Position numbers and translations under genes: made by a program | IMG/VR virus record: IMGVR_UViG_3300037296_000055 | Location: 1-64,000 of that record | Length of the DNA stretch: 64,000 nt | DNA from: a virus | Reading direction: 5' to 3' (one strand) | The notes under the pieces: generated by a model | The model's input: the letters and a program-made list of their open reading frames with translations, nothing else | Told to the model about the DNA's origin: nothing | Database searches by the model: none | In this document: positions 8,746 through 61,964 of the stretch, piece after piece | Layout of the letters: each line of letters begins with the position of its first letter | Numbering within the stretch: position 1 is the first letter of the stretch

Positions 8746-10908
8746 TTAGCTGAAAGCGAAGTCACTTAGCATGACTTCCTCGATGTCCAGAGTGCCGATT
8801 TCAGGCATTAGGTCCAGAGCACCGAATTGAGTTAGTATCCCCCGGAGAGGATCGGTCTTATAAAGCTCTACGAACTTTTGTCGAACGTGGTAGAACATGT
8901 GGTTCATATTACCAGGCGTACAACCAAAACTGTCATGGATGACAGCGATAGGATACTCCACTGACGCAACCACCGAAGTAAGGTGGGCAGCATCAAGGCT
9001 ATGAATGATGTTGGGTGAAGCAGCGGCACGTTGTGCGGAGCTGTTCAGCGTAGCGTCAAGCCAGGACTCCAGTGTGACCTTGATCTCTTGGTCCGCGAAC
9101 CGGAGTTTCGTGCGCTTGATCTCGGGCTTCTTGTAGCGCTGTGCCACAATGAACCCGGTGACAGAGGTTACCCATGTCATGTATTCCGACCGTTCGTTTG
9201 CACGATCGGCCAGTGTCTCGAACAAGCCAAGCATCCGCGAGGGACCCTTTAGCTCTTCACGACATGTGTCAAAGATTTCTGCTCCGAGCTTTGCGTACCA
9301 GAGTCTCTCGCCACTTGCGATATACTCAGACACGTCAGGAGAGTCGTCAATGATTTGCTGAGAAGCACCGTAGCGCGTCAACCCGTAGCCAAGGGTCATG
9401 GTGTTGCGCTTCGCGATCTTACGCCGCTCCTTGAGGGAGGTCACTCTGTTCCAGAACACCGGGAACAGGGCTTCACGTATTGCGCGGTTATGATTCTTCC
9501 ATTCAGCCAGCTCTTGCCAAGCGTCTGCTTTGGCCTGAGAGCGGTAATCGGCTGTCAAGTAGTTCCGTTCGAGTTGCTCCTGTTGTGCAAGAACTTCGTC
9601 AAATCGGATTAACGTCCCCTGGTCCAGTTCGGCCTCTTGTTGGCCCAAACGTGTCCAAACCAGGCGTGCGACGTAGCTATACAGATCACCAGGTCGTTCT
9701 GAAGGAACAAGGTTGACCAGCCCAGCAAGCTCAGTGTCCCGTGACAAGGCAACAAGGTGTTGTGTCCCGGATACCGTCCCATCAATATAGGTAGGGAGGT
9801 GGCACACGTAATCTTCCGGCGGACCATCATGCTGCGACACTAGCCACAGCTCGAAGCATCCCGCCAGCGTAGACCACGGCTTATCTGAGTTGTGCCAGCC
9901 GGTGTTTACGGTGGGATCTGTCGCGTATCCAAGTAGCTCATCGAAGTGATCCTCTACATATTGTGCTCTGTCATCCAGAGGCAGCTTGTCTTGACCAAGA
10001 CAGTTGGCGATGTGGACGTATAGCCAGTACAGGCCGTTGTCCCCCAGGCGGTCACCCTGGGTCAGGAGGAGCATAGCCTTGCTAAGGTCTGTGCCCATCT
10101 CGTTGAGGTAGGAAGTGTTGTTGTAGATACGACCCCGGAAGTCGCAGTTGTACAGGTGGTAGAAGCTTGCATCTGCGTAGTGGCGGGCCAGCTTGAGGGT
10201 GGAGTTGGTCTCGATCTCCTTGGACGTCTTCCGACGCTGATCGAGCTCCCCTTCAAGATTGATAGGGCTGGGCAGCTCAGGGTTCTGGAGGTAGTACTCC
10301 GCGACCTCAAGCAAGGACTTGTTGATCAGCCAGGGTTGAGCCCCCAGCTTATTCAGGGCCTTGAAGACCATTGGCTGCTTCTCAGGACTGAACTGAGCCA
10401 GCACATCCTTCTCCCCTTTCTTCACGATGGGGAAGCCCAGCGGGTGGTAGCCCGATACCCAGTCACGCGGAGGGACAGCCTTGGGGAACATCTCGACCTG
10501 TCGGGTCTTGATCAGCCCCCAGAGCGAGTCGATGGCCCCTTGATCCGCGATCTCCAGCATGTAGCTGGGGTTTGCATTCTTCTTTTTCTTGGCCTGGTGT
10601 TTGCGTCGGAAGCCAAGAATACCTGCCTCGATGTAGGACACAAGAACGAACCATCCCTGCTGACATGCAGCGATAGCGTCCCGTGCCCAGCCGTATTTCT
10701 GCTGCAGAGAGCGGCCAAGCTTCACCGAGATGGCCACAAGCGACTGGTATTGCTCAATCCCATGGATGATCATGCCGAAGCAGAAGAACAGAACTTCTTC
10801 AGCAGGGGCAGCTTTCATGTCCATCGTATGGATGTGGCGGTCGCTTCGTAATAGTGCTTGACGGCGCTCAAAGTCGCCCACAAGCTTTTCTAGAGTAGTT
10901 GTTGTCAT
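8746..10908 (-). CDS. T7-family single-subunit DNA-directed RNA polymerase (stand-alone, ~720 aa)
   Basis: DFRGRIY, motif A IDGTVSGTQH, motif B RKIAKRNTMTLGYG, PNIIHSLDA, motif C IHDSFG, C-terminal FAFS. Confidence 0.97.
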   Translation of the reverse strand: MTTTTLEKLVGDFERRQALLRSDRHIHTMDMKAAPAEEVLFFCFGMIIHGIEQYQSLVAISVKLGRSLQQKYGWARDAIAACQQGWFVLVSYIEAGILGFRRKHQAKKKKNANPSYMLEIADQGAIDSLWGLIKTRQVEMFPKAVPPRDWVSGYHPLGFPIVKKGEKDVLAQFSPEKQPMVFKALNKLGAQPWLINKSLLEVAEYYLQNPELPSPINLEGELDQRRKTSKEIETNSTLKLARHYADASFYHLYNCDFRGRIYNNTSYLNEMGTDLSKAMLLLTQGDRLGDNGLYWLYVHIANCLGQDKLPLDDRAQYVEDHFDELLGYATDPTVNTGWHNSDKPWSTLAGCFELWLVSQHDGPPEDYVCHLPTYIDGTVSGTQHLVALSRDTELAGLVNLVPSERPGDLYSYVARLVWTRLGQQEAELDQGTLIRFDEVLAQQEQLERNYLTADYRSQAKADAWQELAEWKNHNRAIREALFPVFWNRVTSLKERRKIAKRNTMTLGYGLTRYGASQQIIDDSPDVSEYIASGERLWYAKLGAEIFDTCREELKGPSRMLGLFETLADRANERSEYMTWVTSVTGFIVAQRYKKPEIKRTKLRFADQEIKVTLESWLDATLNSSAQRAAASPNIIHSLDAAHLTSVVASVEYPIAVIHDSFGCTPGNMNHMFYHVRQKFVELYKTDPLRGILTQFGALDLMPEIGTLDIEEVMLSDFAFS

Positions 10909-12902: not shown

Positions 12903-13588
12903 CGGCGAGCCACCTTCCGTGGACCAGGTTCCCGGATCAGGAGCTGGAGTGTGTTGTGGGAGCCAGGGTTATACCACTCCGCCATAGGCCGGAAGCCCAG
13001 AGCAATGTAGCAGTGGATGAGGAAGGCAGAGTCATCCCGGTTCAGAACAGGGATCATCTCCAGGGTTTTCGACTCCCACTGACTATCCTTCAGGTCCAGG
13101 ACCCGCTCCAGCGCCCCGATGATCACCGCATAGTCACGGCTCTGACCAATGTCCAGGTCAGGCAGGGCGGTGTGAACACCGTAGACAATGCCCACGCTGG
13201 GTGAGTGGTGGGCGTAGGAACGGAAGTACAGAGTCCCATAACTGATATGGGCTTCCTGCGCTGGGGTCAGCACCACCGGAATATCGTCCCCTGGTAGAGT
13301 CTCTGCCCGTGGGAGGTTGCGACGGACCTGGGGTGGGTTGGGGTTGCGGACCCAAGTGCGGGCCCCTGCAACACGCCCGAAGGCCCAGATGGTGGTGTCC
13401 GTCTCATGGACAACCTCGATGAACTCCTCCCGATCCTCCTTGTAGATCCGGCCCATCGCCTCATAGTTGGCCCGGCTCAGGATCAGCAGACGGGGGTTGA
13501 TCTCCACCGTCCCTGCCATGAAGTGAGCGACTTGTTCGGACGCGCCCATCTGCGATACGCCGCAGCAGCCTGCAATGTGGTTTGCCAT
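12899..13588 (-). CDS. hypothetical protein
   Basis: Start MANHIA after GGAGG. Confidence 0.65.
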   Translation of the reverse strand: MANHIAGCCGVSQMGASEQVAHFMAGTVEINPRLLILSRANYEAMGRIYKEDREEFIEVVHETDTTIWAFGRVAGARTWVRNPNPPQVRRNLPRAETLPGDDIPVVLTPAQEAHISYGTLYFRSYAHHSPSVGIVYGVHTALPDLDIGQSRDYAVIIGALERVLDLKDSQWESKTLEMIPVLNRDDSAFLIHCYIALGFRPMAEWYNPGSHNTLQLLIREPGPRKVARR

Positions 13589-17900: not shown

Positions 17901-17945
17901 AGAAGATCATTCTTCTATTATAGATACACCGTTTTTCTCACTTTT
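17901..17945 (-). promoter_or_regulatory. putative early promoter, motif E copy 1
   Basis: AAAAGTGAG-N7-GTGTATCTATAATAGAAGAATGATCTTCT; 29-bp core identical in 3 copies. Confidence 0.8.
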
Positions 17946-23301: not shown

Positions 23302-23346
23302 AGAAGATCATTCTTCTATTATAGATACACCCTTTTCCTCACTTTT
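23302..23346 (-). promoter_or_regulatory. putative early promoter, motif E copy 2
   Basis: Same bipartite motif, intergenic. Confidence 0.8.
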
Positions 23347-24312: not shown

Positions 24313-24357
24313 AGAAGATCATTCTTCTATTATAGATACACTAAATTCCTCACTTTT
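24313..24357 (-). promoter_or_regulatory. putative early promoter, motif E copy 3
   Basis: Same bipartite motif at the head of the leftward arm. Confidence 0.8.
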
Positions 24358-24414: not shown

Positions 24415-24436
24415 TACCAGGGGACGTTATATGATA
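24415..24436 (+). promoter_or_regulatory. putative late promoter, motif L copy 2
   Basis: TACCAGGGGACGTTATATGATA. Confidence 0.78.
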
Positions 24437-28520: not shown

Positions 28521-28521
28521 C

Positions 28522-30975: not shown

Positions 30976-30986
30976 GGAACTACAAC

Positions 30987-31694
30987 ATGCCTCTTAAATT
31001 CCAATTTGCTGAGAACTCTGGGCTGGGCAACCTCGGCCCGAGCACCTCCATCAAGACGACCCTTGCCGGTCTCACTGGCTTCCAAAGCTTCTTCGTTGTC
31101 GGGGAGGGCGAGACCCTCAGTGGTAGCGCCGTTTCCTCCTGGGTAGCTGCTGAAGGTACAGGGGCCTTTGCGGCTCCTAGCACAGTACGTCGCCCTATCA
31201 AGGCTGCACGGGACGGTCTCTCCACCCACCGCTATGACGGTACCATGGTGCAGTCGCTGTCCGGAGTCACTCTGGGAACCAAGACCAACTACACTGTTGG
31301 CATGCGGTTCTACTCCAACGAGTATACCGAAGACGTTCAGATCATCTGTGGTCAGGACACCGCGGCCCCGAACACCCGCATCTTGAGCCGCTTTGCTAAC
31401 GGTGCTCACCGCTTCGAGTCTGATACGGCTCAGGTGCCTGTGGACAACCGTAACGGCTGGCGCACTATGCTATGGTGTATTTCCGGTGGTACTGCGAAGC
31501 TGAGCATCGATGGCTCTCCCTTCGCCACCCAGGCCGTTGCAAGCTTCAACTTCCCTGACTTCCATATCGGTAACGCCCGCCTCTCCGCAGGTGATGCCAA
31601 GATCGACATCCGCTCTGTTCTCCTGATGAACTCTGACGTGTCGTTGGTCCCCGCAAACCTTGCCATCGCCAAGCGCGCTCTTGACGTTGCATAA
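30987..31694 (+). CDS. ConA/LamG-like beta-sandwich protein (spike accessory)
   Basis: GWRTMLW...AKLSIDG...FHIGN pattern. Confidence 0.55.
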   Translation: MPLKFQFAENSGLGNLGPSTSIKTTLAGLTGFQSFFVVGEGETLSGSAVSSWVAAEGTGAFAAPSTVRRPIKAARDGLSTHRYDGTMVQSLSGVTLGTKTNYTVGMRFYSNEYTEDVQIICGQDTAAPNTRILSRFANGAHRFESDTAQVPVDNRNGWRTMLWCISGGTAKLSIDGSPFATQAVASFNFPDFHIGNARLSAGDAKIDIRSVLLMNSDVSLVPANLAIAKRALDVA

Positions 31695-34793: not shown

Positions 34794-35005
34794 AGGGCTG
34801 GCGCACCCGCATCTTCAACATCACTATCGGTCTCGTCACCGTTGGCGTGTCGGTGGTCGGTGCCCTACAAGACAACATCTCCTACCTAGATCTAACTCCA
34901 AATACGCGAAACATGCTGCTGATCGGCATTGTCGTCTTTCAGACTATCGGCAACGTAATCCTACGTGAATTCACAGATAGCGCTCCAGGAACAAATGGTA
35001 AATAA
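34757..35005 (+). CDS. putative holin
   Basis: LKGWRT followed by two TM segments; overlaps the endolysin end. Confidence 0.65.
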   Translation: MVKDFPVPFPKLKGWRTRIFNITIGLVTVGVSVVGALQDNISYLDLTPNTRNMLLIGIVVFQTIGNVILREFTDSAPGTNGK

Positions 35006-35639
35006 ACCGTATAGCTACGTCAAGCCAAAGAACCAAACTCAGATCGATCTCGTTGAGTCGTTGAAAACCAATCCCGTAACCGTTGTACGAGGACCTGCCG
35101 GTACAGGCAAGACCTTCATGTCAATGGCCACTTACGTTGAGATGCTGCTTTCTTCCAATGAGTTCCGTCAACTTGTGTTCTGCCGCCCAAACGAACCTAC
35201 CGGACGAAGCTTAGGCTCCTTCCCAGGCACCCCTGATGAGAAGCTTGAGCTCTGGCTTAAACCTCTCACAGCTAACCTTGTGGAGCTTCTGCCCAGCACA
35301 GAGATCACGCGTCTTCGTACGCAGGGTCGACTTGCTTACCAACCTCTTGAAACAATCCGTGGTATGAGCTTTGAGTACAGTCTGCTCCTTGTGGACGAAG
35401 CCCAGAACCTTACCAAGCATGAACTTATTGCCATCGTAACCCGTCTGGGTGAAGGCTCCCGTCTCGTCATCCTCGGTGACCCGGATCAGTCCGACCGTCA
35501 TCAATCAGGTTTGGAGTGGTTAGCCGACTTCTGCAAACACCATAACCTGTCCAGTGGAAACATCGAGTTCGGTCTTGATGATATTGTCCGCTCCGACTTT
35601 GTTGGACAATTCCTCCGAGCCCTTGCCAAGAAAGAGTAA
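34995..35639 (+). CDS. phoH: PhoH-family ATPase
   Basis: GPAGTGKT, LGSFPG, IRGMSF, DEAQN, GDPDQSD, DIVRS. Confidence 0.95.
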   Translation: MVNKPYSYVKPKNQTQIDLVESLKTNPVTVVRGPAGTGKTFMSMATYVEMLLSSNEFRQLVFCRPNEPTGRSLGSFPGTPDEKLELWLKPLTANLVELLPSTEITRLRTQGRLAYQPLETIRGMSFEYSLLLVDEAQNLTKHELIAIVTRLGEGSRLVILGDPDQSDRHQSGLEWLADFCKHHNLSSGNIEFGLDDIVRSDFVGQFLRALAKKE

Positions 35640-35645
35640 ACCCTC

Positions 35646-37247
35646 ATGGTACAACGCCCTACAAAACCTCTATCCCAATCCCCTGGTGCTGAGAATGCCC
35701 AGTATGAGTCTTTCCTCCCTCTGTGGAAGCGAGCCAGGGCGGTAATGAACGGAGAGCATGCCGTAAAGGAAGCTGATGCACGTATTGATCGCATAAAGTT
35801 TTCTAACCTCCTGCTCCCCTTCTCCCCAATGATGGACGACCAGCAGTACGCCTTCTACAAGGCCGAAGCTGAGCTCCCCGGTCTTACCTCTCAGTATGGT
35901 AAGGTCATTGCGGGTGGCCTCCTGCGCCGCCAGCCCACCATCGAGCTCCCTGAGTCTGTTCCTGAAGACGCTAAGACCTGGTTCACCGACGACTTCACTG
36001 TTGATGGTAAGTCCATGGTCTCCTTCCTGGACGAAGCCCTGTGGGAAGAAGTATGTTCCTCCCGTGCCTGGGTCATTATCGATTATCCTAGCGTGGACAA
36101 TCCTGAAGAGCTGACCTCTGAGCAACGTGCAAAGATCCGCCCCTACCCTGTCCTCTGGAAGGCCGAAGATGTCATCAACTGGCAGACTCAGCTGAGCCCC
36201 TATACCGGTCAGGAGGAGCTCTCTCGCCTGGTCATCCGCTACTACGAAGAAGAGTTCGTGGACAAAGACGCCTTCAGCCCTGAGCTGGTCGAGTACGCTA
36301 TCGACTATTCGCTTGACGCAGAAGGTGATTACCGAGTACGGTACTTCAAACATATCGACAATCAGGCCGTCACCATCACCAACGGCAACATGTCCCGACC
36401 TAACAACCTTGCCGCTAATGGCGTGGGCGAAGACTGGGACCTGGTACGTACTGTCTACCCGGAAATCCGTGGCGAGATGCTGAAGTCTATTCCTGCCTTC
36501 CCTCTGAACGGTTCTCTCCGTCCCCGTGAGCCCATCCTGATGCCGCTGGTTGACCGTGAGGTCTCCCTGTACAACAAGCTTGCTCACCGTAACCACCTGC
36601 TCTACACAGCCTCCACCTTCACTCCTGTCTTGTTCACCGACATCCAAGACGAAGAGTTCCTGGACATTGTGCAGCAAGGTCTGGGTACCTACATCCGGCT
36701 ACGCCCTGATGACAAGGTAGGGGCTCTGAAGGCCCCTGTTGAGGCACTCTCCGGTCTGGAGTCCGCTATCGCAAGCACCATCGACGAGATGGCCCGGATG
36801 GGTATCCGTCTACTGTCTCCTGACGGTAATCAAGGTGACTCCGGTGTTGCTCTGGAAATCCGTAACTCTGCTCAGACCTCTCAGCTCGCAACGCTGAACG
36901 TGAAGATCTCTCAGACAATGCGTGACATCCTGTCCCTGATGATCGACTGGAAGTATGACCTCCAGATCGAGCCTCATGACATCGACTTCACTCTTAGTGC
37001 TGACTTCAACCCTACTCCTATCGGCGAAGCTTGGATGACAATGATCACCGGCTGGTACGATACTGGCAAGATCCCTCGCTCCCTGTGGCTCTCCGTGGCC
37101 AAGCAGAACGACATCATCCCACCTGACTACGATGATGATGAAGGTATGCAGGAGATCGGCAGTGACCCCACCCGGATCGCTGAGACTCCCACAACCCTGG
37201 ATCCTGACTCCTTCGAGAGGCCAGCTCCCAAACCCGTCGCAACCTAA
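35646..37247 (+). CDS. portal protein (DUF4055-like)
   Basis: Size, position, motifs AEDVINW and SGVALEIR. Confidence 0.88.
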   Translation: MVQRPTKPLSQSPGAENAQYESFLPLWKRARAVMNGEHAVKEADARIDRIKFSNLLLPFSPMMDDQQYAFYKAEAELPGLTSQYGKVIAGGLLRRQPTIELPESVPEDAKTWFTDDFTVDGKSMVSFLDEALWEEVCSSRAWVIIDYPSVDNPEELTSEQRAKIRPYPVLWKAEDVINWQTQLSPYTGQEELSRLVIRYYEEEFVDKDAFSPELVEYAIDYSLDAEGDYRVRYFKHIDNQAVTITNGNMSRPNNLAANGVGEDWDLVRTVYPEIRGEMLKSIPAFPLNGSLRPREPILMPLVDREVSLYNKLAHRNHLLYTASTFTPVLFTDIQDEEFLDIVQQGLGTYIRLRPDDKVGALKAPVEALSGLESAIASTIDEMARMGIRLLSPDGNQGDSGVALEIRNSAQTSQLATLNVKISQTMRDILSLMIDWKYDLQIEPHDIDFTLSADFNPTPIGEAWMTMITGWYDTGKIPRSLWLSVAKQNDIIPPDYDDDEGMQEIGSDPTRIAETPTTLDPDSFERPAPKPVAT

Positions 37248-37259
37248 CAGTAGGTACTT

Positions 37260-40200
37260 ATGGAAAATCAAGACATCTTCGATCGGCAGGTAGACCACCT
37301 GATCCGCACTCGTATGTTCACCGAAGAGCTTCAGAACAAAGTCTCGTCCATGTCCGAAGGGCATCGTCGTAGTCTCCTGAACATCTTCCGTACTGGACGA
37401 CCGAGTGAGATCCGCCTGGAAGTCAACCGCTACGTGGAGGAAATGAAGTCCTCCATCCGTGGTGGTATGACCGACTACCTTGGAGCGGAGATCTCTTTCC
37501 AAAAGTCAACAGCTCAGCGTTCTGTGGGGAGCTTCTATTCCCTGCAGGATGTTGACCGTGGCAAGGTGGCCAACCGGCTGCTGAACCAGCCTATCACCTT
37601 CTCGCAGACTTCCTCTGTAGGGACAGGCATCCTTCCTTCCCTGGATGCCATGGCCCCTGCCCAAACCTCTCGCCTGAACACCGTGATCCAGAAGGGTCTG
37701 TTGGAAGGCAAGTCAAGGGCCGAGATCGAAGCCTCTCTGCTGAAGACCACCAAGCTGACCGAGAACCAGGCCCGCACCCTGGTCACCACCGGTATTACCC
37801 ATGCGCAAGAATTGACCACCCAAGAGTTCTGGGACGCTAACCCTGATGTTCTGTCAGGCTTCGTCTACACAGCAATTCTGGATGGTAACACCACTCGCAC
37901 CTGCGGCTCCTTGGATGGCACTGTGTTCCCTGCGGATGCTGTCACCCATCGCCCACCCCTACACTGGAACTGTCGTTCTAGTCTGGTGCCTGTCCTGAAG
38001 GACTACGACGCTCTGGTTGCCACTGACAGCCCACGCGTCACACAAAGCGCCCTTGCTGACATTCCTCCGAGCAGGTTCAATGGCCAACCACCACTCCGCG
38101 AGAACTTCGAAGAGTGGTTGCGTCGTCAGCCCTTCAAGCGACAACAATCCTTACTCGGCTCCGAAGATGCTGCCACTCTGTTCCAGAACGGTACGCTCCG
38201 GATGAACGAGTTCTTCACTAAGCTGAAACGTCCTATCTCTATCGGCCAACTCCGCACACTGGATGCCAAGTCCACCTTCTCGTATTCAAAAGACTCTCTG
38301 GATGCTAAGGTACGTGTTGCGGCCACCCGTCCTGCAGATCTTGTTCGTAGCCCTGGCTTGGCCAAAGATCTAAAGGCCCTAATTCTGGCGGACGCCCGAG
38401 ATGCCTCTCAGTCAATTTCTCTCACTGACTATCGCGGTGTTACCCTTGGAGGTAAGCGCAGCGTACGTCGTGCTACTTACAATGAGTACGATCCTCGCAA
38501 CCACCAGTATGATCCCTACACCGGCGAGGTTAGAAGTTCATACTACTACAACCCCGACTATGTCTTACTTACAGAGCGCCTTGATGTTATCCAACGATCC
38601 CAGGTACTCTCCAAGCCCCAACGAGAATGGATCACGAAGTTCGTAAACTCTCTGGAGGATGACGTCTCCGTGAACCAGCAGTCCGTGATTGCTGAGACAC
38701 TACGTCTTACCTTCGAGCGTGCTGCCCGTGACACCTCCATGGGCTGGAGCGACTATGCCGGTGTTTTCCGGGCCGAGTCCAAGTTTGGTGTGACCAACGT
38801 CTCCCGTATCCTTGACCGACGCTCTCGTGCCGGTGACGAGATGTTCACCCGCTTTGCTGATGTTGATGAGCCTGCCGCTATCCAGATCCTGGGTGAGTGG
38901 AAGACCTTTGAAGACCTCACTTCTAATCGGAACCGGAACCAACAGTTCATTAGGGACTGGGACAAGCAAGAGGGCCGCGCTCTGGCACGGAGGGTATACT
39001 ACGGGCGTGCAGTTGACCTTGCGAAGGGTCGTGTAATAGACGCTCCTGGTGCTCCCACACGGGCCTATTTGCTGGGCCTCCGTCCGAAGGTCAAAGGACC
39101 TAACAAGGACATTGTCAAGTGGGTCGAGGCCAACATCCCTGGCATCAACACTTTCAAGTTCGGAGCTCTGAAGGGCTCTAACACTGTGGCTGGCTGGATC
39201 GAGTCGGTCCCCGGAGTGAAGCAGTGGAACTCGTTCATGAAGGAATGGGCTAAGCCTTACGATCCGATCCTCTACCGTCTGAAGAATGGACTGAGTGCCA
39301 AGGTACGTAACATCCTTGACCTTGAGTTCCTGAAGATGAGTGACCGACGTGGTCTGGTTGACCGCTTCATAACTTCCCGAGTTCTTGGGGACAACGAAGA
39401 CATTCAGGTGCTGCAGAAGGTGATGAAGACCATCGCCGGAGGGACCATGACTGACTATGACGGTCTTGCCATCACCATCGGTAAGGAACTGTACAAGCAG
39501 TATCGCCCTCTCCGTCCCTGGTACAAGCCTACTCTGCAAGACTACCACCGGGATGGTGCGGGTATCCTTGAGTCTCTCCGTGAGAACGGTACGCTCCGAG
39601 TGATGTCCCGTGGCGTGAACCGTCGTGGAGTTCTTGACCTTGATACAGGTCGTGTAGGACCACCTTTCCGAGACACCGTGTCCCGTGAGGTGACCATCCT
39701 TGATAAGGACCTGGTTCAGCTCCAGCGAGCTAACCGTGAGATCATCGTTGCTGACCGTGTGGGTATCACAGGTCCCTCCAACGAGTATCACGTTCGTGTG
39801 GGTAAGAAAGAGTACTTCGACGCTTACGGCAACAACACTGGTCGTTCTGTGATCACCAGGTCTGCAGCGCCGTTCTACGATGAGAACCTGATCGATAAAG
39901 ACTTCGCTGACATGCTCAATCATACCATGTCTTCCAAATACCAGACCGATAACGACTTCTCCCGGTTCATGCTGGACCTTGCCCGCTTCCGCGATGTTCG
40001 TGGTCGTGTGGACTACTATGACGACCTCAACCTGTTCCGCCACGACATCATCAAGCGAGGAGAGCAAGGCTTTGGGCTTATGGAAACTGTAAAGTTCCAC
40101 AATGCTCGACAGAAGCCCTTCTCCGTGATGGCTCGTATCGACGGTCGAGGCCGTGTCTACTACAATGGCTATCTGACCCCCACAGGCGGTGAGATGGTCC

Positions 40201-41780
40201 GACCCTTCCTGAACTCTGCCAAGGCTGTGCCTATGACGCCAGGGGGACTACAACAACTTCGTGCTACCATCGGTGTTCTGACAGGTAGCTCCACTGAAAC
40301 CCTAACAGATGCTGGACGCTACGCCTCCTTCTACAAGAACGAGAAATCAATCTTGGAGATCGGTCGGCTCATGCAAGCAACCACTCAGCGAGATCGTCGT
40401 ATCCGTGAGTTCCTCGAACATCCTCTCATCCGCGCAACGGACGGTGAGGAGGTGGCCAAGCTAGGCCGCTTTGCTCTGGAATACGCACGTATCCACGATC
40501 ACATGGGCGGTGACTTCACGGATCTACGCAGGCTCTCGTTGTACGAGACGCGTCTGATGTCCGAGGTCGATGCCAGTGCCAGCGCACTACAAATGATTTC
40601 ACTTGCCACAGGTGACCGCCAAGCAGCACTCTTGTCTAACGTTCTTCCCACAACTCGGAAGCAGCGGATCTATGACATTGTTGCTCAGGAAGTTGCCAGT
40701 GACCCTCGGTTCCTGAAGATCATGGAAGAAACCGGACTTGACCTGAACTGGGAAGACCTTCAAAAGGCTGCCAAGTATCACGTCCTTGTTTCCTACTATG
40801 GTGCCGGGAGCACAGGCCAGCGTGCCCGTGTTACTGCCGAACTTGTGAACATCCTGAAGAAACGAAACGTGGGCTACATTACACGTTCTGAACAGCTTGC
40901 GGTGAACCGCGCCCTTACTGACAACATCAAGACAGCAACCGCAATGGGAGCTGAGGAGACTGTTGATGCCCTTACCTCGTTCAAGCGTGAGCTGAATGAT
41001 CTGGTCAAATCAGGAGAGCGTCCGTCCACAGCAATGTTCACTGAAGCGGCTGAGATGCATCCAGACGTCTTCAACTTTCTTGATAAGCTGTCCCGTCCAA
41101 CGGCAGATCCCTTCGTCGGTCCCGAGACCTTCAAAGATATCGCTGTCCTGTTGTCCGAGAAGCTGGAAGAACAAACCCCGAGGGCTTCCCAGTACATCAA
41201 ATTCTGGAAGAAGGCTGCCCAGCGGTTTGCAGAAGAGACCAACACGGTCGACGTCCCCTGGGTTACTTTCGACGGAAAGCAGCTATGGCAGAGGTATCGT
41301 CCTAAGGTCCAAGAGTCAATACGTTTCCGTGATCCTGTGTCGAACCGCTTCGTGCGGAACGTGTATCAGGAGGCAGCGGAGAGCGCCACACTGCTTGGCA
41401 AGGGTTCCATCGGCGATGTTCGCCTAGGGGCTGGAGTCAACGGTACCCACATGAATGACGCCTCGATCGTGAGGATGTTCCACCTGTGGGGTAAGAAGAA
41501 CGGTATCCAGACGGGCACCATTCATGACGCTTTCTTCGTGAACCTAAATCACCTTGACGACTCTGTCCAGACGCTTCTTGAGATCTACGCTAAGGCCTCT
41601 CAGGCCCACCAGATCGAGAACACGATGCTTGCCATGCTTAAGGAAGGCATGACCAAGTCCTCGTACAACGAACTGCTGGCGACCGCGAGAGAACTCGGTT
41701 TGATAGGTCAAACTCTTGACCCGAACGAGATCTTACGTATCCCGAACGCTAACGAGTCCCGCTACGGTTTCGGCCCCTAA
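37260..41780 (+). CDS. MuF (SPP1 gp7-like) head protein fused to a T7-family RNA polymerase; putative virion RNAP
   Basis: N-terminal YTAILDGNTTRTCGSLDG...PPLHWNCRS; C-terminal DGRGRVY, EVDASASALQ, KAAKYHVLVSYYG, NGTHMNDA, TIHDAFF. Confidence 0.9.
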   Translation: MENQDIFDRQVDHLIRTRMFTEELQNKVSSMSEGHRRSLLNIFRTGRPSEIRLEVNRYVEEMKSSIRGGMTDYLGAEISFQKSTAQRSVGSFYSLQDVDRGKVANRLLNQPITFSQTSSVGTGILPSLDAMAPAQTSRLNTVIQKGLLEGKSRAEIEASLLKTTKLTENQARTLVTTGITHAQELTTQEFWDANPDVLSGFVYTAILDGNTTRTCGSLDGTVFPADAVTHRPPLHWNCRSSLVPVLKDYDALVATDSPRVTQSALADIPPSRFNGQPPLRENFEEWLRRQPFKRQQSLLGSEDAATLFQNGTLRMNEFFTKLKRPISIGQLRTLDAKSTFSYSKDSLDAKVRVAATRPADLVRSPGLAKDLKALILADARDASQSISLTDYRGVTLGGKRSVRRATYNEYDPRNHQYDPYTGEVRSSYYYNPDYVLLTERLDVIQRSQVLSKPQREWITKFVNSLEDDVSVNQQSVIAETLRLTFERAARDTSMGWSDYAGVFRAESKFGVTNVSRILDRRSRAGDEMFTRFADVDEPAAIQILGEWKTFEDLTSNRNRNQQFIRDWDKQEGRALARRVYYGRAVDLAKGRVIDAPGAPTRAYLLGLRPKVKGPNKDIVKWVEANIPGINTFKFGALKGSNTVAGWIESVPGVKQWNSFMKEWAKPYDPILYRLKNGLSAKVRNILDLEFLKMSDRRGLVDRFITSRVLGDNEDIQVLQKVMKTIAGGTMTDYDGLAITIGKELYKQYRPLRPWYKPTLQDYHRDGAGILESLRENGTLRVMSRGVNRRGVLDLDTGRVGPPFRDTVSREVTILDKDLVQLQRANREIIVADRVGITGPSNEYHVRVGKKEYFDAYGNNTGRSVITRSAAPFYDENLIDKDFADMLNHTMSSKYQTDNDFSRFMLDLARFRDVRGRVDYYDDLNLFRHDIIKRGEQGFGLMETVKFHNARQKPFSVMARIDGRGRVYYNGYLTPTGGEMVRPFLNSAKAVPMTPGGLQQLRATIGVLTGSSTETLTDAGRYASFYKNEKSILEIGRLMQATTQRDRRIREFLEHPLIRATDGEEVAKLGRFALEYARIHDHMGGDFTDLRRLSLYETRLMSEVDASASALQMISLATGDRQAALLSNVLPTTRKQRIYDIVAQEVASDPRFLKIMEETGLDLNWEDLQKAAKYHVLVSYYGAGSTGQRARVTAELVNILKKRNVGYITRSEQLAVNRALTDNIKTATAMGAEETVDALTSFKRELNDLVKSGERPSTAMFTEAAEMHPDVFNFLDKLSRPTADPFVGPETFKDIAVLLSEKLEEQTPRASQYIKFWKKAAQRFAEETNTVDVPWVTFDGKQLWQRYRPKVQESIRFRDPVSNRFVRNVYQEAAESATLLGKGSIGDVRLGAGVNGTHMNDASIVRMFHLWGKKNGIQTGTIHDAFFVNLNHLDDSVQTLLEIYAKASQAHQIENTMLAMLKEGMTKSSYNELLATARELGLIGQTLDPNEILRIPNANESRYGFGP

Positions 41781-41803: not shown

Positions 41804-41825
41804 TACCAGGGGACGTTATATGATA
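41804..41825 (+). promoter_or_regulatory. putative late promoter, motif L copy 3
   Basis: TACCAGGGGACGTTATATGATA upstream of scaffold/capsid genes. Confidence 0.8.
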
Positions 41826-42001
41826 GGGGTGGAGTATTTATGCTCCCCCCTGCCCCCGGTTGATCGATGCTGATGATCGAAACTTCATCATTCATCCTTC
41901 ATTCCTCCCCCAAGATTATCTAATGATGATAATCATGAAACCCTTCCTTGGGACTGTGTCCCTAACCTTGTCAATAGCTGTGCTACTGGAGAACTACTAC
42001 T

Positions 42002-42664
42002 ATGCCTGACGATATTGAAAACACCGAAACTGATACCGGTAACGAAGAGACTGAGCTGGAGCTTTCCGAAGCCCAACTGGCCATGTTCGATAAGCTTGTC
42101 AAAGCCCGTTCTGAAGAGAACCTGTCTAAGATGAAGACTAACATGGACCGTATGTCTGAAGAGCGTGATCAAGCGATCCGCGAGAAAGCCCGTTTTGAAG
42201 AAGCTGAAACTGTGCGCAAGCAAGAACAGCTCGAGAAGGACGGTAAGATCCAAGAGTCCCTGGAGATGCAGCTGACTGCTCTCAAAGAGAAAAACAAGCT
42301 GCTCAATGACCGTATCTCAACAGAGAGTCGTTCCCGAAACCTTAGCTCTGCCCTACGCAGCGTTGACTTCCGAAATGACCGTGCTGCTGAGCTGGCAGAG
42401 ATGGCAATCGTTCCCCAACTGATCCAAGACAAGGACGGTAACTGGGTTCACAAATCGGGTATTTCAATCAGTGAATTCGTCAAGACTTACTTCTCTGACG
42501 AAGACAATGAATACCTGCTGAAACCAAAACAATCACGTGGCACTGGCGACGTACCCAACCCCGGAACCAAGTCGGACAAAGCTCCCGCTTCTCTCTCCGG
42601 TGTTTCAAGCTCCAAGATGCTTGAGCTCGTTCGAGCAGGTAAAGTCGGTCGTGGTGTCAAGTAA
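42002..42664 (+). CDS. capsid scaffolding protein
   Basis: Charged coiled coil directly before the MCP. Confidence 0.8.
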   Translation: MPDDIENTETDTGNEETELELSEAQLAMFDKLVKARSEENLSKMKTNMDRMSEERDQAIREKARFEEAETVRKQEQLEKDGKIQESLEMQLTALKEKNKLLNDRISTESRSRNLSSALRSVDFRNDRAAELAEMAIVPQLIQDKDGNWVHKSGISISEFVKTYFSDEDNEYLLKPKQSRGTGDVPNPGTKSDKAPASLSGVSSSKMLELVRAGKVGRGVK

Positions 42665-42688: not shown

Positions 42689-43786
42689 ATGGTTATCACC
42701 AACACAGCCTTCCAAGACATCGAAGTCGCGATCACCGCGTATTCCGATGAGCAGTACACGGAAGCCCGTAAACTAAACTCCACCGGTCTGGTGTCCAGCT
42801 CTGCTGACATCGACACGACCATGGAGTCGTTCATCGGCCAAATGCGCTGGTACAAGACGATCGACGCGAACTTCAACACTCCGTCGCTCGTAACTCCAAC
42901 TGACGGTACCGTGACTGACGTCTCGACCGAAGTTGCCAAGTACATCAAGTCCATGCAGAGCTTCGGTGCTCGCCAGGTCAACCTGCAGAAGGTTGTTACC
43001 CAGGAAGATGGTCTTGAGAAAGTCGCACGTGACTTCTCCGAACTGCAATCGCAGAACGAAGACGCTGCTGTTAAAGCCGTCCTGACAGGCGTTGCTGGGG
43101 CTGAGACTGGCACTGGTATCACCGGTGGCATCGTCGGCTTCGACACTGAGGCCAACGCAACAACCGGTATGTTCGTGGACATGAACGCTGCTGGCGCTTA
43201 CGGCGCTGTGGTTGCTTCTGCCGCTAACGGTCGTCGTTTGTTCGACAGCTCGGTCGCCGGTGCTGCTCGTGGCGAGCGTCTGTTCCGTGCCATCGGCATG
43301 GGCTTTAAAGACTATGAGCCTGATTGGGCTTACATGGTCACGACCCCTGAGACAATGGCTGACCTCCGTGCAGCTAACCTTGTGGACGACACGACCGTCA
43401 CCGACGGTAACCTGGAATTCGCAACCATCTTCGGTGGCAAGTTCCGTCTGATCCAGTCCCGCTGGAACCAGGGTGACTTCTCCTCGGCCAGCTCGCTGAA
43501 CACCTACTCCAAGCGCACAACCTTCATCGTGAAGCCCGGTGCGATCGTCTGGAACCCAATCCAGCTGGAGATGCCTACCGAAATCGACCGGAATGCCAAA
43601 GCCTATCTGGGCGGTGGTACGACCGAGATTTGGTACCGTTGGGGCTACGTCGCACACCCACGCGGCTATAGCTGGTCCGGCGCTGAGAACGTCTTCGCGA
43701 ACCCTGCCTCCCTGGCAGCTGGCGCAAGCTGGGAGCGTAAGTACGACCCTCTGAACCTGTCGATCCTGCCAATCTTCCACTCCTAA
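42689..43786 (+). CDS. major capsid protein
   Basis: Strong RBS, position, C-terminal GGGTTEIWYRWGYVAHPRGYSW. Confidence 0.9.
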   Translation: MVITNTAFQDIEVAITAYSDEQYTEARKLNSTGLVSSSADIDTTMESFIGQMRWYKTIDANFNTPSLVTPTDGTVTDVSTEVAKYIKSMQSFGARQVNLQKVVTQEDGLEKVARDFSELQSQNEDAAVKAVLTGVAGAETGTGITGGIVGFDTEANATTGMFVDMNAAGAYGAVVASAANGRRLFDSSVAGAARGERLFRAIGMGFKDYEPDWAYMVTTPETMADLRAANLVDDTTVTDGNLEFATIFGGKFRLIQSRWNQGDFSSASSLNTYSKRTTFIVKPGAIVWNPIQLEMPTEIDRNAKAYLGGGTTEIWYRWGYVAHPRGYSWSGAENVFANPASLAAGASWERKYDPLNLSILPIFHS

Positions 43787-46877: not shown

Positions 46878-49800
46878 GTGGCAGTCACCATTGAATTCGA
46901 CGCTAACGTACTCCCTGCACAGCGGGGAATACGAAACCTTGATCGTTCCATGGACACCCTCATGTCCTCGGCCAATAAAGCAACACGCTCTACTGGCAAG
47001 CTGAACGACCTTAGTACCCTGAAAGCTCAGCGCTCTCTCGATACTATGAACAAATCTTTGAAGAGCATGGAGAAGCAAGCTTCTTCAACCAAACGTATGA
47101 TGATGGGCATGATTGCCAGCGTCGGTGCCGGTATGTCCGTCACAGCGCTCGCACGTACCGCCGACTCATACAAGAACATGACCAACAAGCTGATGTCCAT
47201 GGGGCAATCCACCGGCGAAGCTCGGGATACTCTCCTGGACCTCTCTGACGTGGCAGCTCGTACCCGTACACCTCTGGCTGACATGGCCTCCCTGTATGCC
47301 AAGGCTTCCCTCGCAGCTAACGACCTCGGAGCCTCGCAGGCTGACATCATGCAGTTCACCGAGAACATCGGTAACGCCCTTGGTTCCTCCGGTACTTCCG
47401 CAACCTCCGCAGCTGGCGCACTCTTGCAGCTGGGTCAGGCTCTGGGCGGTACTCTGGTTCAGGCCGAGGAATTCAACTCGATCCTTGATGGTTCGTTCGC
47501 CGTGGCTCAGGCCGCTGCTGACGGTATCGAAGCAGCTGGTGGCTCCGTTGCCAAGCTGAACCGTATGGTCAAGGACCAAAAAGTCACTCCCCAGATGCTC
47601 TATCAGGGCATCATGTCTCAGTCGGAACAACTTGCTGAGAAGATGGGTAAGACGACTTCCACCATCGGTCAAGCCTTTGAAGTTCTACGCAACCGCTGGA
47701 CCCTGTTCATTGGTACTCTGGACCTCACCTATGGCGTGTCCACCGGTGTCTCCAACATCATTCTCAGGATCGCTGACGCGGTCAACTACCTCGCACGGAA
47801 CATGGAGCTGATCGAGATCCCGATCAAGACGTTCCTGACCCTGCTCGCTGTCATCCCCCTCATGCTGGGCTTCATGGTCGTTGATCCGATCAAGGCCAAG
47901 ATCGCAGAGATGCGGGAAGCCTTCGATAGCTTCCTGGGCGGTAACGGCATCAGCTTCGAGGGGCTGAAGTCTGCCTTCTCTAACCTGAAAGCCTCGTTCC
48001 CTGGCACGATGGACTTTGCCGGAAACCTGTTCAAGCAGCTCTGGGAAACCATCAAGCTCTACGGCGCTGGAATTGGCGACTCTGTCAAGGTACTTGGGGC
48101 CTACGTCAAGTTCGAGTTCCAACAGCTCTGGGCGTCCTTCGCCCTGAAGTTCCCTGACTTCTCCATCAAGGTCAAGGAGTACGCCACCAAGACGGTCGAG
48201 TACGTCAAGTGGATGGTCGAGATGCTCAAGTCCCTTGCTGTGGGTGTCAAGGACTCCATCGGTGGGTTCTTCGCTGACATCGACTTCGACGCCGCCTTTG
48301 GTCTGGACGAAGGTGTCTTTGACTCCATCACCGGCAAGGTGACTTCCAAGGTCAAGGGTATCCGTGACGCCATCTCCGGTCTGTTCGGTCCTGCGCGTGA
48401 AGCGCCGAGAGGTAACTTCCTGGAAGTAATGGCTCAGCGGATCAAGGAGTCCAAGGAAGACCCTCTACTGCAGAAGTCCAACTTCATCAAGGACACGATC
48501 CTGGATGCTACTGGCTTTTCCATCGGTGAGATCGAGAACGCTGAAGGTCTGGGCATCCAGATCGACAAAGTCCTTGGTAACGCTGAAGGCCAAACCAAAG
48601 TCCTGGACCTGATCTTTGACCGTAGTGGTGCCAAAGCTCGTCTGAACATGCTGCTGATCCAGAACGCTCTGATCTCGTTCGGTCAAGCCATCATCCACCC
48701 TATCAAGACCATTTCCGAGGGCTTCTCGAAAGCCTTCAACTCGACCGAGCGTGCCTTTGATACTGGCATGTTCGCCATCGGCATCAAGAACTTCGCAGAG
48801 TCCCTGCGTAACTTGTCTATCGCTTCCATCGTCATGACCCACTACAAAGAGTCCCTGCGGGCTCTGACCATGACCTTTGGCTCTTCTATCCGTGGTACCC
48901 TGGCCGTTCTTGGTCTGGTCGTCATGGGCATCATGCAGCTCCCTGGCCTGTTCGGTCACGTTCTGGCAACCCTGAAGGTTGTCGGCGAATACGTGGGCGA
49001 GATCCTGGGCGGTATCTGGGAAGGGTTCGCCCTCACAGACATCGGCGAGGCTGTCAAGGATAGCTTCAAAAGTGTCAAAGACTTCGGTGCTGATCTCCTG
49101 GACGCCATGGGTCTGGAGCGTCTGAAGGACGGCTTCAGGTCTGTCAAAGAAGCCATGGAGAACATCTTCGGTGACTTCTCCGGCACTGTCGGTATCACCA
49201 GCCTTGTTGCTCTGGGTTCTGCCCTGGCAATGGTGGTCTGGCGTACCGGTGCTCTGGGCATTGCCTTCAAGCAAGTCTCCCTGGGTGCTACCGCGCTGAT
49301 GACCGGTAACTCTCTGCTGACCCGCTCCCTCCGGGGTGTGGCCAGTGGTTTCTTCCTCTGGATTTCTGTCTTCAACCTCCTACCTGACCTGATGCGCTTT
49401 GCCGCAAAGTTCTTGCCGGAAGAGATGGCAACGATCGTGAAGGACGCGGCTGAGGAACTGTCTGACTTTCCGATCCTGATCAAAGACCTGTTCCTGAAAG
49501 GCTTCAAGAACCTCGAAGATATCGAGTGGGGCGAAGTCGGAACTAACATCGCTGAGCAACTGTCCAAGGCCCTTCAGAAGGGTGCTGAGGCGCAGGGCTG
49601 GGTCGATGACCAAGGTCAGAAGATCTGGGAAAAGCTGATGAACTTTGATGGTCGGTCCGCGCTGGCCAACATCAAGGGCAAGCTGCGTAGCCTGTATCAG
49701 GGCATCGTGAGCCTTGTCAAAGGTATCTTCTCGGTAATCACGTTCCCCGCAAAGATCTTCCAGTTCGATGCTAACGTTATCCTGGCTGCTGCTTCTGCTC

Positions 49801-52800
49801 TGGGTCTCTTGTTCATCAAGGGCTTCCGGGACGGTCTGCTGCGTGCTGCCAAGGTCACTATCGGTCTGGGCATCCTGCTTCCGATGTTTGACAGTGGCTC
49901 CATGCGTCGAGTGGTTTACGGCTATGCTTCTGGCATCGTCGGTATCCTGTTCGAAGCTCTGGGCAAAGAGTTCGAGTCGGTTGGCTGGGATGAAATGAAC
50001 TCACGGGTGCTTGACAAGATCCTGACTCCTCCGAAAGAGGGAGACACGATGGTTGGGAACTACATCCGTAAAGTCGGCAACATCATGAAGAACATCGGCG
50101 CTACGCTGATCCTCTCCGTGATGGACAACCTGGGCTTCAGTGAAGAAACTGGCAACTGGGTGGCCGAACAGTTCTCCGGCTCCATCGGTGGTGGTCTTGT
50201 TCTGGGTGCAGCAATGCTCCTGTCCGGCACTGCTCGTGGTGTTATCTTCGGAAGTCTGAAAGCACTCTTCGGTGCCAAGATGATGAAGATGGCCTTCGAA
50301 CACTGGGGCGACACTACTGAAGATGGTATGAAGCACTTCGCACGGGGTATCCGTGGTAGTGTGATCCGTCTGATCGGTGTTGCTGGAGGCATGCTAGGTT
50401 ACGGTATCGGTCAGCACATCGCTGATCGTATGGACCTTAGCGGCGTCGAACGTATGTTCACTGTGGGTCTGTCCACTCTGTTGGGCTTCATCCTTCCGCA
50501 GATGTTCGGAACTGCTCTCTTCGGCATGATGGCAACCCGCTGGGCCGCTGTCATGGCTCGCTTCGCCACTTTCGGTGCGAGTTCCTTCGGCCAAGTTCTG
50601 GGTCGTATCTTCTCCCTCAAGGGCGCTGCTCTTGCTGGTGGTACGTTCCTGACTCTGGACGGTCTGTTCGGTGGAATGACCGGGCTCTCCGAGCAGATGG
50701 AGAAAGGCCTGTTCGCCGCAATCTCCATCGGTCTCGCAGGTGCTTCCCGCTTCATGCCTGACCTTCTGGGTCGTTGGTGGCGTCAAGTTGGTCTCTACAT
50801 GTCCATCAGCCTCTACGGCATGCTGGCACCTCTGGGAGCCGCTCTGCAACGTCAGCTCACAACCACTCTAGGTCGCGCATTCCTGAATGCGGGTCCTGCT
50901 CTAGGTTCCCTTATCGGTGGCGTGTTCCGAGGCCTAAACCTTGGCTCCGTGATCGGTATGATCATTGGTCAGAACCTCCAAGACGCAAGCATCGGTGACA
51001 TCATCCAACGGGTGCTGTATGCCACTGTTGCGGGTATGGTACTAGGTGCAGGCTGGAAGAAATCTCTGGCCCTGTCCGTGGTCTACGCAATCATCGAAGC
51101 GTGGAACAACCCTGAGATCCAGAACGCCGTTTCAGGTCTGGAAGGTATCCTGCAAGGGTTCCTGAACGAGATGGGCTTCGACGTTGAGCTCTCTGGCTTC
51201 ACCAACAACATCGGCATGACTATCACGGACGCGCTGTCCGAGAACAAGCTGGGTTCCTTCATCCTGAAGAACTGGCAGACCGTCTTGCCCGCAATGTTGA
51301 GCAGTGCAGTCCGTAAGATGTCCTTCCCCGCACTAGGGGCGGCGCTGCTTGACGGCTTGGCAAAGTCCTTCGTTGGTGACTCCAACCTCCCTGCTGAATT
51401 GCAGGCTGAGCTGGATGACGTCTTCTCTGACGCGACCCTTGCTATGGGTGTTGCTGGTACTGTTGGTACGGCTGTCGGTGGTCCATTCGTGGGCATCGGC
51501 ATGGGTATTGCTGCTGGTATCATCACTGGCATGATGTCCTACTTCAACTCAGGTCTTCCTGGTTCCATGGTTTCCGACGCGATCGGTAACATGGTTGCCA
51601 AGGGCCTCCGTGGTACTATGGGCGATACTGTTGCGGACGCTATGCTCCGTGCAGGTAACCTGATGAACTCCGGGAAGGACGGTCCCGTCAATGACTATGA
51701 GCTGGCAATCCAGCCCTACATTGACCAAGACTACATCACTCCTGAGATCGAGGCCACCGCTAAGGCTGCGATGGAGGCTCTGCAAGCCACGCTTGACCGT
51801 CGCTCCGATGGCTACGCTGGTCTGGAAGTGTTCGACTCGATGGTCGCCAACCTGGCCACCACTCGTGCCGCGATCGAAGGGTTCACCAACGACATCGGCG
51901 CAATGAATGCTGCTGCAGACCTTGCTGCTAGCCGGATTGCTGGTCTGGGTGAGAACCTTGCCGCTCGTCCTGCAACCTCAGACCGTCAGAGCGATCGTGC
52001 TAATGACGTCCTGGGTGAGATCCAGCCTAAGGTTTCTCCGGACGCCTTCGCTGATCTTGTGCAGCAAGCCCTTGACGCTAAGCTGGAGATTGAGCAAGTC
52101 TTCATCGACGCGTTGGACACGACCTCTATCACTACCGGGCTGGAGACTTCTGTCTCTGTTGCGGACATGACACCTGACACTTCTCCGATCACGAACGCGT
52201 TCGGTCAGATGTTCGGTGACTTGGCAACTCGCTCTATCGCTGAGGGCGCGGGCTTCGCTCGTAACCTTACCGATCCTCTGCCTCCTGCGATGCAGGGCGC
52301 GGCTGACTCTGCCATCAACATGGTCGAGACCTCTCTGAACAGCAACGCTCAGCGTCTTGGTCAGGACTTCGCCAACACCCTCGTGACTGGCATCAAGGGC
52401 GTCTTTGGTTCCACAACCATCGCGGCTCCGACCATCTCGGCCCCCAAGCTGAGCTATGGTGCAACGACCTCGAAGGCCCCTCCCGCAGGTGGTCGTCCGA
52501 GTGAGTTCTCCACAGGTGGTTCCGTCTTCGGCCCTGGCACAGGCACCTCCGACAGCATCCCCGCGCTGTTGTCCAACGGTGAGTTTGTGATCAATGCCAA
52601 GGACACTTCCAAGAACCTGGCTCTGCTGAAAGCGATCAACACCGGGAAAGACATCTCTCGGTTCGCTGCTGGAGGTATGGCCGGTCAACGTCGTCAGGTT
52701 GTACAACGCTTCAAGACGGGCACTGATGAGCCTGCCAAGGCGAAGTACTCCTACACTGAGGACTTTGAAGGTCCGGCTGCTGGCTGGGCTGACTGGATCA

Positions 52801-61959: not shown

Positions 61960-61964
61960 GTTGG

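Follow-up and report, generated by a model that had tools for sequence, protein, structure and literature searches.

The first 64 kb of the 82,504-bp IMG/VR record IMGVR_UViG_3300037296_000055 (hereafter the window, the whole 64,000-nucleotide stretch that was analysed) encode a protein of 1506 amino acids in which a MuF/SPP1-gp7-type minor head domain is fused to a T7-type single-subunit RNA polymerase (RNAP). The record derives from a salt lake metagenome sample and has a 127-bp end repeat. The fusion protein is probably a packaged virion RNAP which transcribes from a class of promoter-like elements, here called class E, before a second, canonical T7-like RNAP specified by the same genome takes over. 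Packaging, ejection, polymerase activity and the assignment of promoters to the two enzymes are what we infer from the features described below.

The fusion gene and its three parts lie as follows:
37260..41780, plus strand: MuF-RNAP fusion gene, 1506 amino acids (P0001), a single open frame, stop codon included
37260..38294, plus strand: MuF/SPP1-gp7-type minor head domain, residues 1-345, recognised by PF04233, phrog_241 and fold matches
38295..38900, plus strand: arginine-rich helical linker domain, residues 346-547, conserved and with a high predicted local distance difference test score (pLDDT)
38901..41777, plus strand: complete T7-type single-subunit RNAP module, residues 548-1506, with N-terminal domain, thumb, palm and fingers

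In the N-terminal part, PF04233 (Phage_Mu_F) scored 37.7 bits against a curated cut-off of 29.6 over residues 139-242, and phrog_241 (head morphogenesis) matched residues 50-345 (E-value=1.7e-49). The MuF signature residues are invariant in 49-60 homologues and, as judged from these alignments, the domain is therefore under selection. An AlphaFold2 (AF2) model of the N-terminal 560 residues had a pLDDT of 86. Its MuF part gave 101 matches (E <= 1e-3) in BFVD, all to predicted structures only; these were phage minor capsid and head morphogenesis proteins, and they included the MuF-ADP-ribosyltransferase fusion of Xanthomonas phage Xp12. A Foldseek search of the PDB with the same 560 residues returned nothing at E <= 1e-3, and a wide PDB structure comparison with residues 1-260 returned generic helical bundles only (best Z 11.8, a value which is not meaningful for helical proteins). 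When the portal protein (500 amino acids, 43-row alignment) and MuF residues 1-345 (49 rows) were predicted as a complex, the score was 0.00 and the mark 0.32, which is evidence neither way; the label "portal-tethered" would be one of analogy, drawn solely from the likeness to SPP1 gp7. The linker domain, in which the invariant residues include G393, K399, N472, R482, R487 and W496, had no Pfam match and no usable protein-atlas match.

The polymerase module was recognised both by sequence and by fold. PF00940 (RNA_pol) scored 34.6 bits (cut-off 22) over residues 1093-1443, and 36.8 bits in a six-frame search of the genome, while phrog_414 (RNA polymerase) matched with an E-value of 1.9e-25. 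The presence of both domains in the one protein is well beyond chance. The AF2 model of residues 345-1506, built with 49 homologues, had a mean pLDDT of 82.5 and a predicted template modelling score of 0.79. Foldseek matched it to T7 RNAP and to the human and yeast mitochondrial RNAPs with E-values of about 1e-18 (best 1.7e-18) and a probability of 1.00. With VIA-align, model residues 204-1160 (protein residues 548-1504) were superimposed on residues 34-882 of T7 RNAP (Z 28.6, root-mean-square deviation 4.3 A, 539 residues); the mitochondrial RNAPs gave Z 24-26, and the N4 mini-virion RNAP (mini-vRNAP) about 16. The N-terminal domain of the module carries an insertion at residues ~585-715, which has low pLDDT. 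In sequence the module bears very little similarity to T7 RNAP (phmmer E-value of about 0.03 against PDB sequences).

The active site was examined by pairing residues with T7 RNAP in a HMMER alignment and by scoring conservation in an alignment of 59 homologues, which are 25-60% identical overall, some of them ~25% in the N-terminal part. The elements found were:
40140..40154, plus strand: DGRGR, residues 961-965, equivalent to T7 D421-x-R-G-R425; D, R and R invariant in 59/59, G in 57/59
40569..40592, plus strand: motif A, with Asp1104 pairing with T7 D537, invariant in 59/59
40758..40802, plus strand: motif B (O-helix), with Lys1172, Tyr1180 and Gly1181 invariant in 59/59
41439..41534, plus strand: His1397 (T7 H784), Asp1400 and motif C His1422-Asp1423 (T7 H811-D812), all invariant in 59/59

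The spacing K1172-x7-Y1180-G1181 equals that of T7 K631-x7-Y639-G640. Four residues before the motif-B Lys, where T7 has R627, the family has A, Q, S, R or N; the Lys at -3 (K1169) is kept in 58 of the 59 sequences and, going by this conservation, may substitute for the motif-B Arg. Since the catalytic and nucleoside triphosphate-binding residues are invariant across diverged homologues, selection for polymerase chemistry is indicated, and from its residues the fused RNAP is apparently catalytically active.

The gene lies in the head module, with these neighbours:
35646..37247, plus strand: portal gene, directly upstream of the fusion gene (phrog_145, E-value 3.8e-58; PF13264 in homologues)
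42002..42664, plus strand: scaffold gene, directly downstream of the fusion gene (phrog_206, E-value 1.7e-8)
42689-43786, plus strand: major head protein gene, after the scaffold gene

The fusion frame runs uninterrupted between the portal and scaffold genes and starts 13 nt past the portal stop codon. The called portal product (P0121) has 500 amino acids, so that the true start of that gene is probably at about 35745. The major head gene is followed by genes for an Ad1 head-tail adaptor, a 2348 amino acid tape measure, a distal tail protein and a J-like tail fibre, and the gene order around the fusion is that of a siphovirus-type late module. In phage DSS3_VP1 the fusion occupies the identical slot between portal and scaffold. 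No second MuF gene turned up among the head-module open reading frames (ORFs) that were scanned.

An earlier note on this DNA had placed the gene between portal and scaffold, which the PHROG matches of the neighbours confirm. It had also recognised a MuF signature and the RNAP motifs in their order, and both could be located: TAILDGNTTRTCGSLDG at residues 204-220 and PPLHWNCRS at 232-240 in the MuF domain, and DGRGR at 961-965, DASASALQ at 1104-1111, K-x7-YG at 1172-1181, NGTHMNDA at 1394-1401 and HDAF at 1422-1425 in the polymerase. The replacement of the motif-B Arg by Gln had been read correctly, the residue four before the motif-B Lys being Gln1168. AlphaFold, which the note had proposed for defining the domain boundaries, yielded an RNAP fold over residues 548-1505, and here two of the note's statements had to be revised. 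What had been described as a long unassigned middle region is mostly RNAP module, including a T7-type N-terminal domain, with residues ~346-547 alone left unassigned; and the polymerase, which had been put at the C-terminal ~550 residues, is a module of ~960 residues (548-1506).

The architecture is widespread. DSS3_VP1 and DSS3_PM1, two cultured roseophages, have full-length homologues (40.5% identity, 100% coverage by tblastn), annotated merely as "minor head protein-like" or "head morphogenesis". A word-indexed search yielded at least 216 homologous clusters, nearly all of 1450-1600 amino acids with both Pfam domains; those that are named carry the label "SPP1 gp7 family putative phage head morphogenesis protein". 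An exhaustive phmmer search of 1.84 billion representatives with the RNAP module gave 115 matches at E <= 1e-3. In nearly all of the near-full-length matches the RNAP part begins 550-700 residues into a protein of 1400-2070 amino acids, and canonical T7-like RNAPs barely register in this search. A few RNAP-only representatives of 785-968 amino acids (P0241, P0249, P0031 and P0040) could be contig-end fragments or stand-alone forms. The closest homologues (P0002-P0005) are 60-66% identical; a metagenome scan for close relatives found homologues of about 40-54% identity only, and megablast of the 35-45 kb region against phage records gave no match.

The database search for proteins with both MuF and RNAP, also proposed in the earlier note, has thus found them in at least 216 clusters, and the same result bears on the sequencing error that the note named as a possible refutation. 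A false join of a MuF gene to an RNAP gene, made in sequencing or assembly, is refuted, the fusion being one ORF in these clusters, which come from many samples, as well as in the cultured phages DSS3_VP1 and DSS3_PM1; in independent IMG/VR records, moreover, the matches lie in stop-free open frames of about 1470-1510 amino acids.

In EBPR siphovirus 1 (L005 6040-11413) motif B (about residues 1177-1183) is the exact point at which the fusion gene is divided in two, and a gene for an HNH endonuclease lies between the two halves. Breaks at the motif-B site were seen in many metagenomic representatives (P0245, P0251, P0252, P0256 and P0268-P0280), which suggests recurrent insertion of a homing endonuclease or an intron into the catalytic core. 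Alternatively, the split at motif B may reflect a truly split enzyme.

The second polymerase is encoded in the opposite arm of the genome:
8746..10932, minus strand: canonical T7-like RNAP, 728 amino acids, candidate non-virion RNAP (PF00940 251 bits; phrog_414 E-value 1e-124)

Its gene lies in a replication and nucleotide-metabolism arm together with those for DNA polymerase I, a primase-helicase, an exonuclease and ribonucleotide reductase, and its product and the fused RNAP are only about 23% identical in local alignment. DSS3_VP1 likewise encodes two polymerases, gp108 (fusion; YP_010105321) and gp080 (canonical), and both kinds are also present in the relative G002 and in 4/4 complete relatives tested. 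Because the canonical RNAP is there as well, bulk transcription can do without the fused enzyme, and a phage that encodes an ordinary T7-like RNAP is not wholly dependent on the fused one. The overall reading of the earlier note accordingly survives in part: the architecture is real and conserved, while the RNAP length of ~550 amino acids and the sole dependence on the fused enzyme have to be given up.

Two classes of promoter-like element were found. Class E has a consensus of ~37 nt, AAAAAGTGAGRAAAA-n3-YGTATCTATAATRRRR-AAT, and in the window it appears as a 29-nt exact repeat (three copies, none expected) holding the core of the family-wide consensus, AAAAAGTGAG...GTATCTATAAT:
24313..24341, minus strand: class E copy 1, at the head of the early genes of the leftward arm
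23302..23330, minus strand: class E copy 2, exact 29-nt repeat
17901..17929, minus strand: class E copy 3, on the strand of the canonical RNAP gene and about 7 kb ahead of it

Each of these copies is followed by an inverted repeat with a 6-bp stem (AGAAGA ATGA TCTTCT), with a start codon about 30 nt further on. Short inverted repeats of varying sequence follow the core in many relatives, though not clearly in DSS3_VP1; they may be DNA hairpins of the N4 type or, equally, 5' RNA stem-loops. A terminator-like hairpin often stands just before class E. Two copies occur in G002, whose content of guanine plus cytosine (GC) is 39%, and the core is found three times in DSS3_VP1. In IMG/VR, class E was found in 55 stretches, which gave 39 distinct instances once aligned. 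Among the carriers that are at least 90% complete the fusion is encoded in six of seven; the seventh has an element of different spacing and no single-subunit RNAP at all. Class E heads the early block, of which the canonical RNAP gene is a part, and in 7/7 genomes examined there are one to three copies on the strand of that gene, 2.4-7 kb ahead of it. From sequence and position these elements are candidate early promoters.

Class L consists of TTACCAGGGGACGYTAWA followed by GAGA or GGGG. In sequence (TACCAGGGGACGTTA...) it resembles the T3/T7 promoters, and it is always oriented with the local genes, heading middle and late ones. A 22-nt exact repeat accounts for three copies, with none expected, and weaker cores were found as well:
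24369-24390 and 24415-24436, plus strand: class L tandem pair, heading the rightward late/structural arm that holds the fusion gene
41804..41825, plus strand: class L, 24 nt past the fusion stop codon, with the scaffold and major head genes following it
13282..13296, minus strand: weaker class L core in the replication arm
9610..9624, minus strand: weaker class L core inside the canonical RNAP gene
74167-74181 of the 82.5-kb record, minus strand: class L, T3/T7-promoter-like

Three of the class L copies are followed by a shared leader word, TCATTCATCCTTC, at 24732, at 41888 and at 74091-74103 of the 82.5-kb record. Related elements are present in G002, where exact repeats missed them and word counts of upstream regions found them, and at no fewer than 12 sites in DSS3_VP1. 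Class L elements, too, are candidate promoters.

The leader before the scaffold gene contains, ahead of the ribosome binding site (RBS), a small hairpin at 41950-41962 of the window, which in most relatives directly abuts the RBS. Its stem of 4-6 bp varies in sequence with compensating changes, its 3-nt loop reads TGT or CGT, and the hairpin was seen in every relative looked at (L006-L015, and DSS3_VP1 at about 25690 of L003). As it is not enriched elsewhere in the genome, it may be an element of RNA processing, stability or translation. The idea that hairpins with YGT loops are genome-wide promoters was rejected, since there were five TGT loops, mostly inside genes, against 1.6 in shuffled sequences.

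Put together, these features suggest the following relay. The fusion gene, in a late structural operon behind class L, would be expressed during prohead assembly, and the MuF domain would bring a few copies of the protein into the prohead at the portal, in the manner of SPP1 gp7. At the next infection the protein would be ejected from the capsid together with the DNA, by way of the long tail. The fused RNAP would then read the ~37-nt class E promoters, and the early block, including the canonical RNAP gene, would be transcribed; the canonical RNAP would go on to transcribe the middle and late genes from class L. Since the fusion gene is part of a class-L-driven late operon, its product cannot be the enzyme that starts that operon. 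Given two active-looking T7-type RNAPs, two promoter-like classes and the confinement of class E to the head of the early block, this relay is the most economical reading. The note's proposal of a packaged and injected enzyme for host-independent early transcription is likewise what best explains the anatomy, and it gains strength from the canonical RNAP and the two promoter-like classes, of which the note had no knowledge.

A number of observations weigh against it. Class E contains a perfect TATAAT, so that initiation by the host sigma-70 RNAP is possible, as at T7 A1-A3, and in the DSS3_VP1 record it lies mid-genome, which leaves unsupported a transcription-driven entry of the DNA from a leading end as in T7 or N4. 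The canonical motif-B Arg is missing. A protein of 1506 amino acids must unfold to traverse a siphovirus tail. Both RNAPs and both promoter classes always co-occur, and the pairing of class E with the fused enzyme and of class L with the canonical one is a matter of parsimony. Among sequencing runs, the source DNA run alone contains this stretch, and no RNA run is listed for it; the paper on DSS3_VP1 reports no virion proteome and does not mention RNA polymerase.

One alternative is that the host RNAP starts at class E through its TATAAT and the canonical RNAP does the rest, the packaged MuF-RNAP serving instead to prime replication, to open or pull in the DNA, or to make a short regulatory or anti-defence RNA. 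T7 A1-A3 are host-RNAP promoters ahead of an RNAP gene, and class E, standing one to three times ahead of the canonical RNAP gene, is placed like them. T7-type and mitochondrial RNAPs prime replication, and the fused fold is as close to the mitochondrial enzymes (Z 24-26) as to T7. Nevertheless we regard this alternative as unlikely. Class E has neither a -35 hexamer nor a TG extension, and its conserved span of about 37 nt goes far beyond a sigma-70 -10 element; phages whose GC contents are 39% and 55%, and whose hosts presumably differ, retain this consensus. Sigma-70-like sites at 16-27 kb show no enrichment, being no more frequent than by chance (4 found, 6.0 expected). The replacement of deoxythymidine (dT) by deoxyuridine (dU) in the cultured relatives (PMC8323127) would, in addition, present the host enzyme with a changed T-rich -10 element.

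The fusion protein might, on the other hand, stay in the cell as a second, late RNAP, its MuF domain being a remnant or a tether coupling late transcription to head assembly. Its gene is indeed placed with the late genes behind class L, and its packaging is inferred; but we consider this improbable, because the MuF domain is under selection, with signature residues invariant in 49-60 homologues, and the gene sits in the exact MuF slot, with no other MuF gene among the head-module ORFs scanned. An enzyme made late cannot, besides, start its own late operon, and the late genes are already explained by the canonical RNAP and class L. More improbable still is an RNAP module without activity, reused for structure or DNA binding in a head-internal or ejection protein. 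Although the absent motif-B Arg and the very low similarity to T7 RNAP (E-value of about 0.03 to PDB sequences) would fit such a role, both metal-binding Asp residues, the Lys and Tyr of motif B and the equivalent of T7 His784 are invariant in 59/59 homologues, and in some relatives a homing endonuclease lies exactly at motif B, as is typical of essential catalytic sites.

A broader proposal can be built upon the relay from fused to canonical RNAP. Naomviridae and hundreds of uncultured marine, freshwater and salt-lake relatives would use a two-polymerase relay independent of the host RNAP, in which a MuF-loaded T7-type RNAP acts at class E to switch on the canonical RNAP, maybe as an adaptation for dU genomes; this would make three independent routes by which virion RNAPs have come about, with MuF for the first time as the carrier of a polymerase. 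We hold the chances of this wider claim to be evenly balanced. Other dU phages bring their own transcription enzymes. In related Naomviridae dT is swapped for dU, and the DNA of the cultured relatives DSS3_VP1 and DSS3_PM1 has dU in place of dT (PMC8323127; PMC12697855); in view of both facts, independence from the host would make sense. The genome described here has a gene of the deoxycytidine monophosphate (dCMP) deaminase family at 67293-67613 of the 82.5-kb record, minus strand (L004 3098-3664), and no ThyA, ThyX or YfbR-type deoxythymidine monophosphate phosphatase was found in it. With a dCMP deaminase and neither a thymidylate synthase nor a YfbR-type phosphatase, this phage may or may not share the dU-DNA of its relatives.

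Several other genes were observed. The tape measure gene (window 46878-53924, plus strand; 2348 amino acids) implies an unusually long tail and contains an internal pair of 90-nt repeats (52556-52645 and 53570-53659) which are 72% identical. A PhoH-like gene (window 34965-35639, plus strand) stands in the structural module directly before the portal gene, and one is also present in the late region of DSS3_VP1. Between the large terminase gene and a Hoc-like decoration gene there are three ORFs of 292, 817 and 249 amino acids (window 27642-31694, plus strand), for which no PHROG or Pfam match was found. Amidoligase, COOH-NH2 ligase and glutamine amidotransferase genes are clustered at the far end of the minus-strand arm (window 59552-63077, minus strand, and L004 2587-3192, minus strand).

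The lineages with known virion RNAPs are few, namely the N4-like, the phiKZ/AR9-like jumbo and the crAss-like phages, and P23-45. Each of these has been instructive about the exit of large proteins from capsids and about ways in which phages evade transcription by the host. The siphovirus described here appears to use the standard MuF module for head incorporation as the vehicle of a compact T7-type enzyme, in a protein that public databases file as "head morphogenesis protein" only. Since the cultured members DSS3_VP1 and DSS3_PM1 grow on Ruegeria pomeroyi and candidate promoters for both RNAPs have been defined, the proposal is directly testable. If it is true, the fusion would be a natural cargo system for MuF-mediated protein delivery, the fused enzyme and its long, specific promoter would make a new orthogonal RNAP-promoter pair, and there would be a possible account of transcription in dU-DNA roseophages.

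Among known systems, phage N4 offers the precedent of a virion RNAP followed by a second phage RNAP (PMC13492108). Like N4 gp50 (Schitoviridae), the fusion has a right-hand RNAP of the T7 family, is encoded among late genes and would be packaged and injected for early transcription until a second RNAP takes over; the early promoters, in the fusion phage candidates, are in both cases few and unusual. N4 gp50 differs in being about 3500 amino acids long, with N- and C-terminal domains of its own and no MuF, and in belonging to a short-tailed phage, whereas the fusion has 1506 amino acids, a MuF carrier and a long non-contractile tail with a 2348 amino acid tape measure. Structurally it is nearer to the T7 and mitochondrial RNAPs (Z 24-29) than to the N4 mini-vRNAP (Z about 16), and the N4-like RNAP family phrog_2166 matched it only with an E-value of 1.4e-4 over 55 residues; the layout is not the N4-like one.

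Phage P23-45 has a virion RNAP, gp96, fused to its tape measure, and a non-virion RNAP, gp64 (PMC10770324). With the relay proposed here it has in common a long-tailed siphovirus, a virion RNAP on a structural protein, and transcription by that RNAP of pre-early genes that include the gene of the second RNAP. It differs in that both its enzymes are of the two-barrel type, which is related to cellular RNAPs, with the tape measure as carrier, in contrast to the T7-type fold and MuF carrier of the fusion. Membership in the two-barrel class (P23-45 gp96, crAss-like gp66 and the phiKZ type) does not agree with the top structural matches, all of which were right-hand T7 or mitochondrial RNAPs. The free RNAPs of T7, T3 and SP6, and the phage's own 728 amino acid RNAP, share with the fused module its fold, motifs A, B and C and DxRGR. 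They are early-gene products of about 730-880 amino acids, whereas the fused module represents a deeply diverged clade with the insertion at residues ~585-715 and without the motif-B Arg.

In the text of a survey of polyvalent proteins, MuF is presented as a carrier of injected effector domains, and N4-like RNAP and MuF are named as separate starting points, that text containing no MuF-RNAP fusion (PMC5512222). The MuF-effector fusions, the MuF-ADP-ribosyltransferase of Xp12 among them, resemble the protein described here in having an N-terminal MuF encoded near the portal gene and a C-terminal enzyme as cargo, which is thought to be delivered to the host; their cargoes differ in being toxins or host-modifying enzymes (RNases, ADP-ribosyltransferases, RelA/SpoT and others). 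A search of the literature readable without subscription on MuF, SPP1 gp7, Naomviridae or DSS3_VP1 with RNA polymerase produced no description of the fusion, and the paper on dU biosynthesis leaves transcription unmentioned. Virion RNAPs and MuF-cargo fusions are both known, and it is the combination of MuF with a T7-type RNAP that is new in the literature searched.

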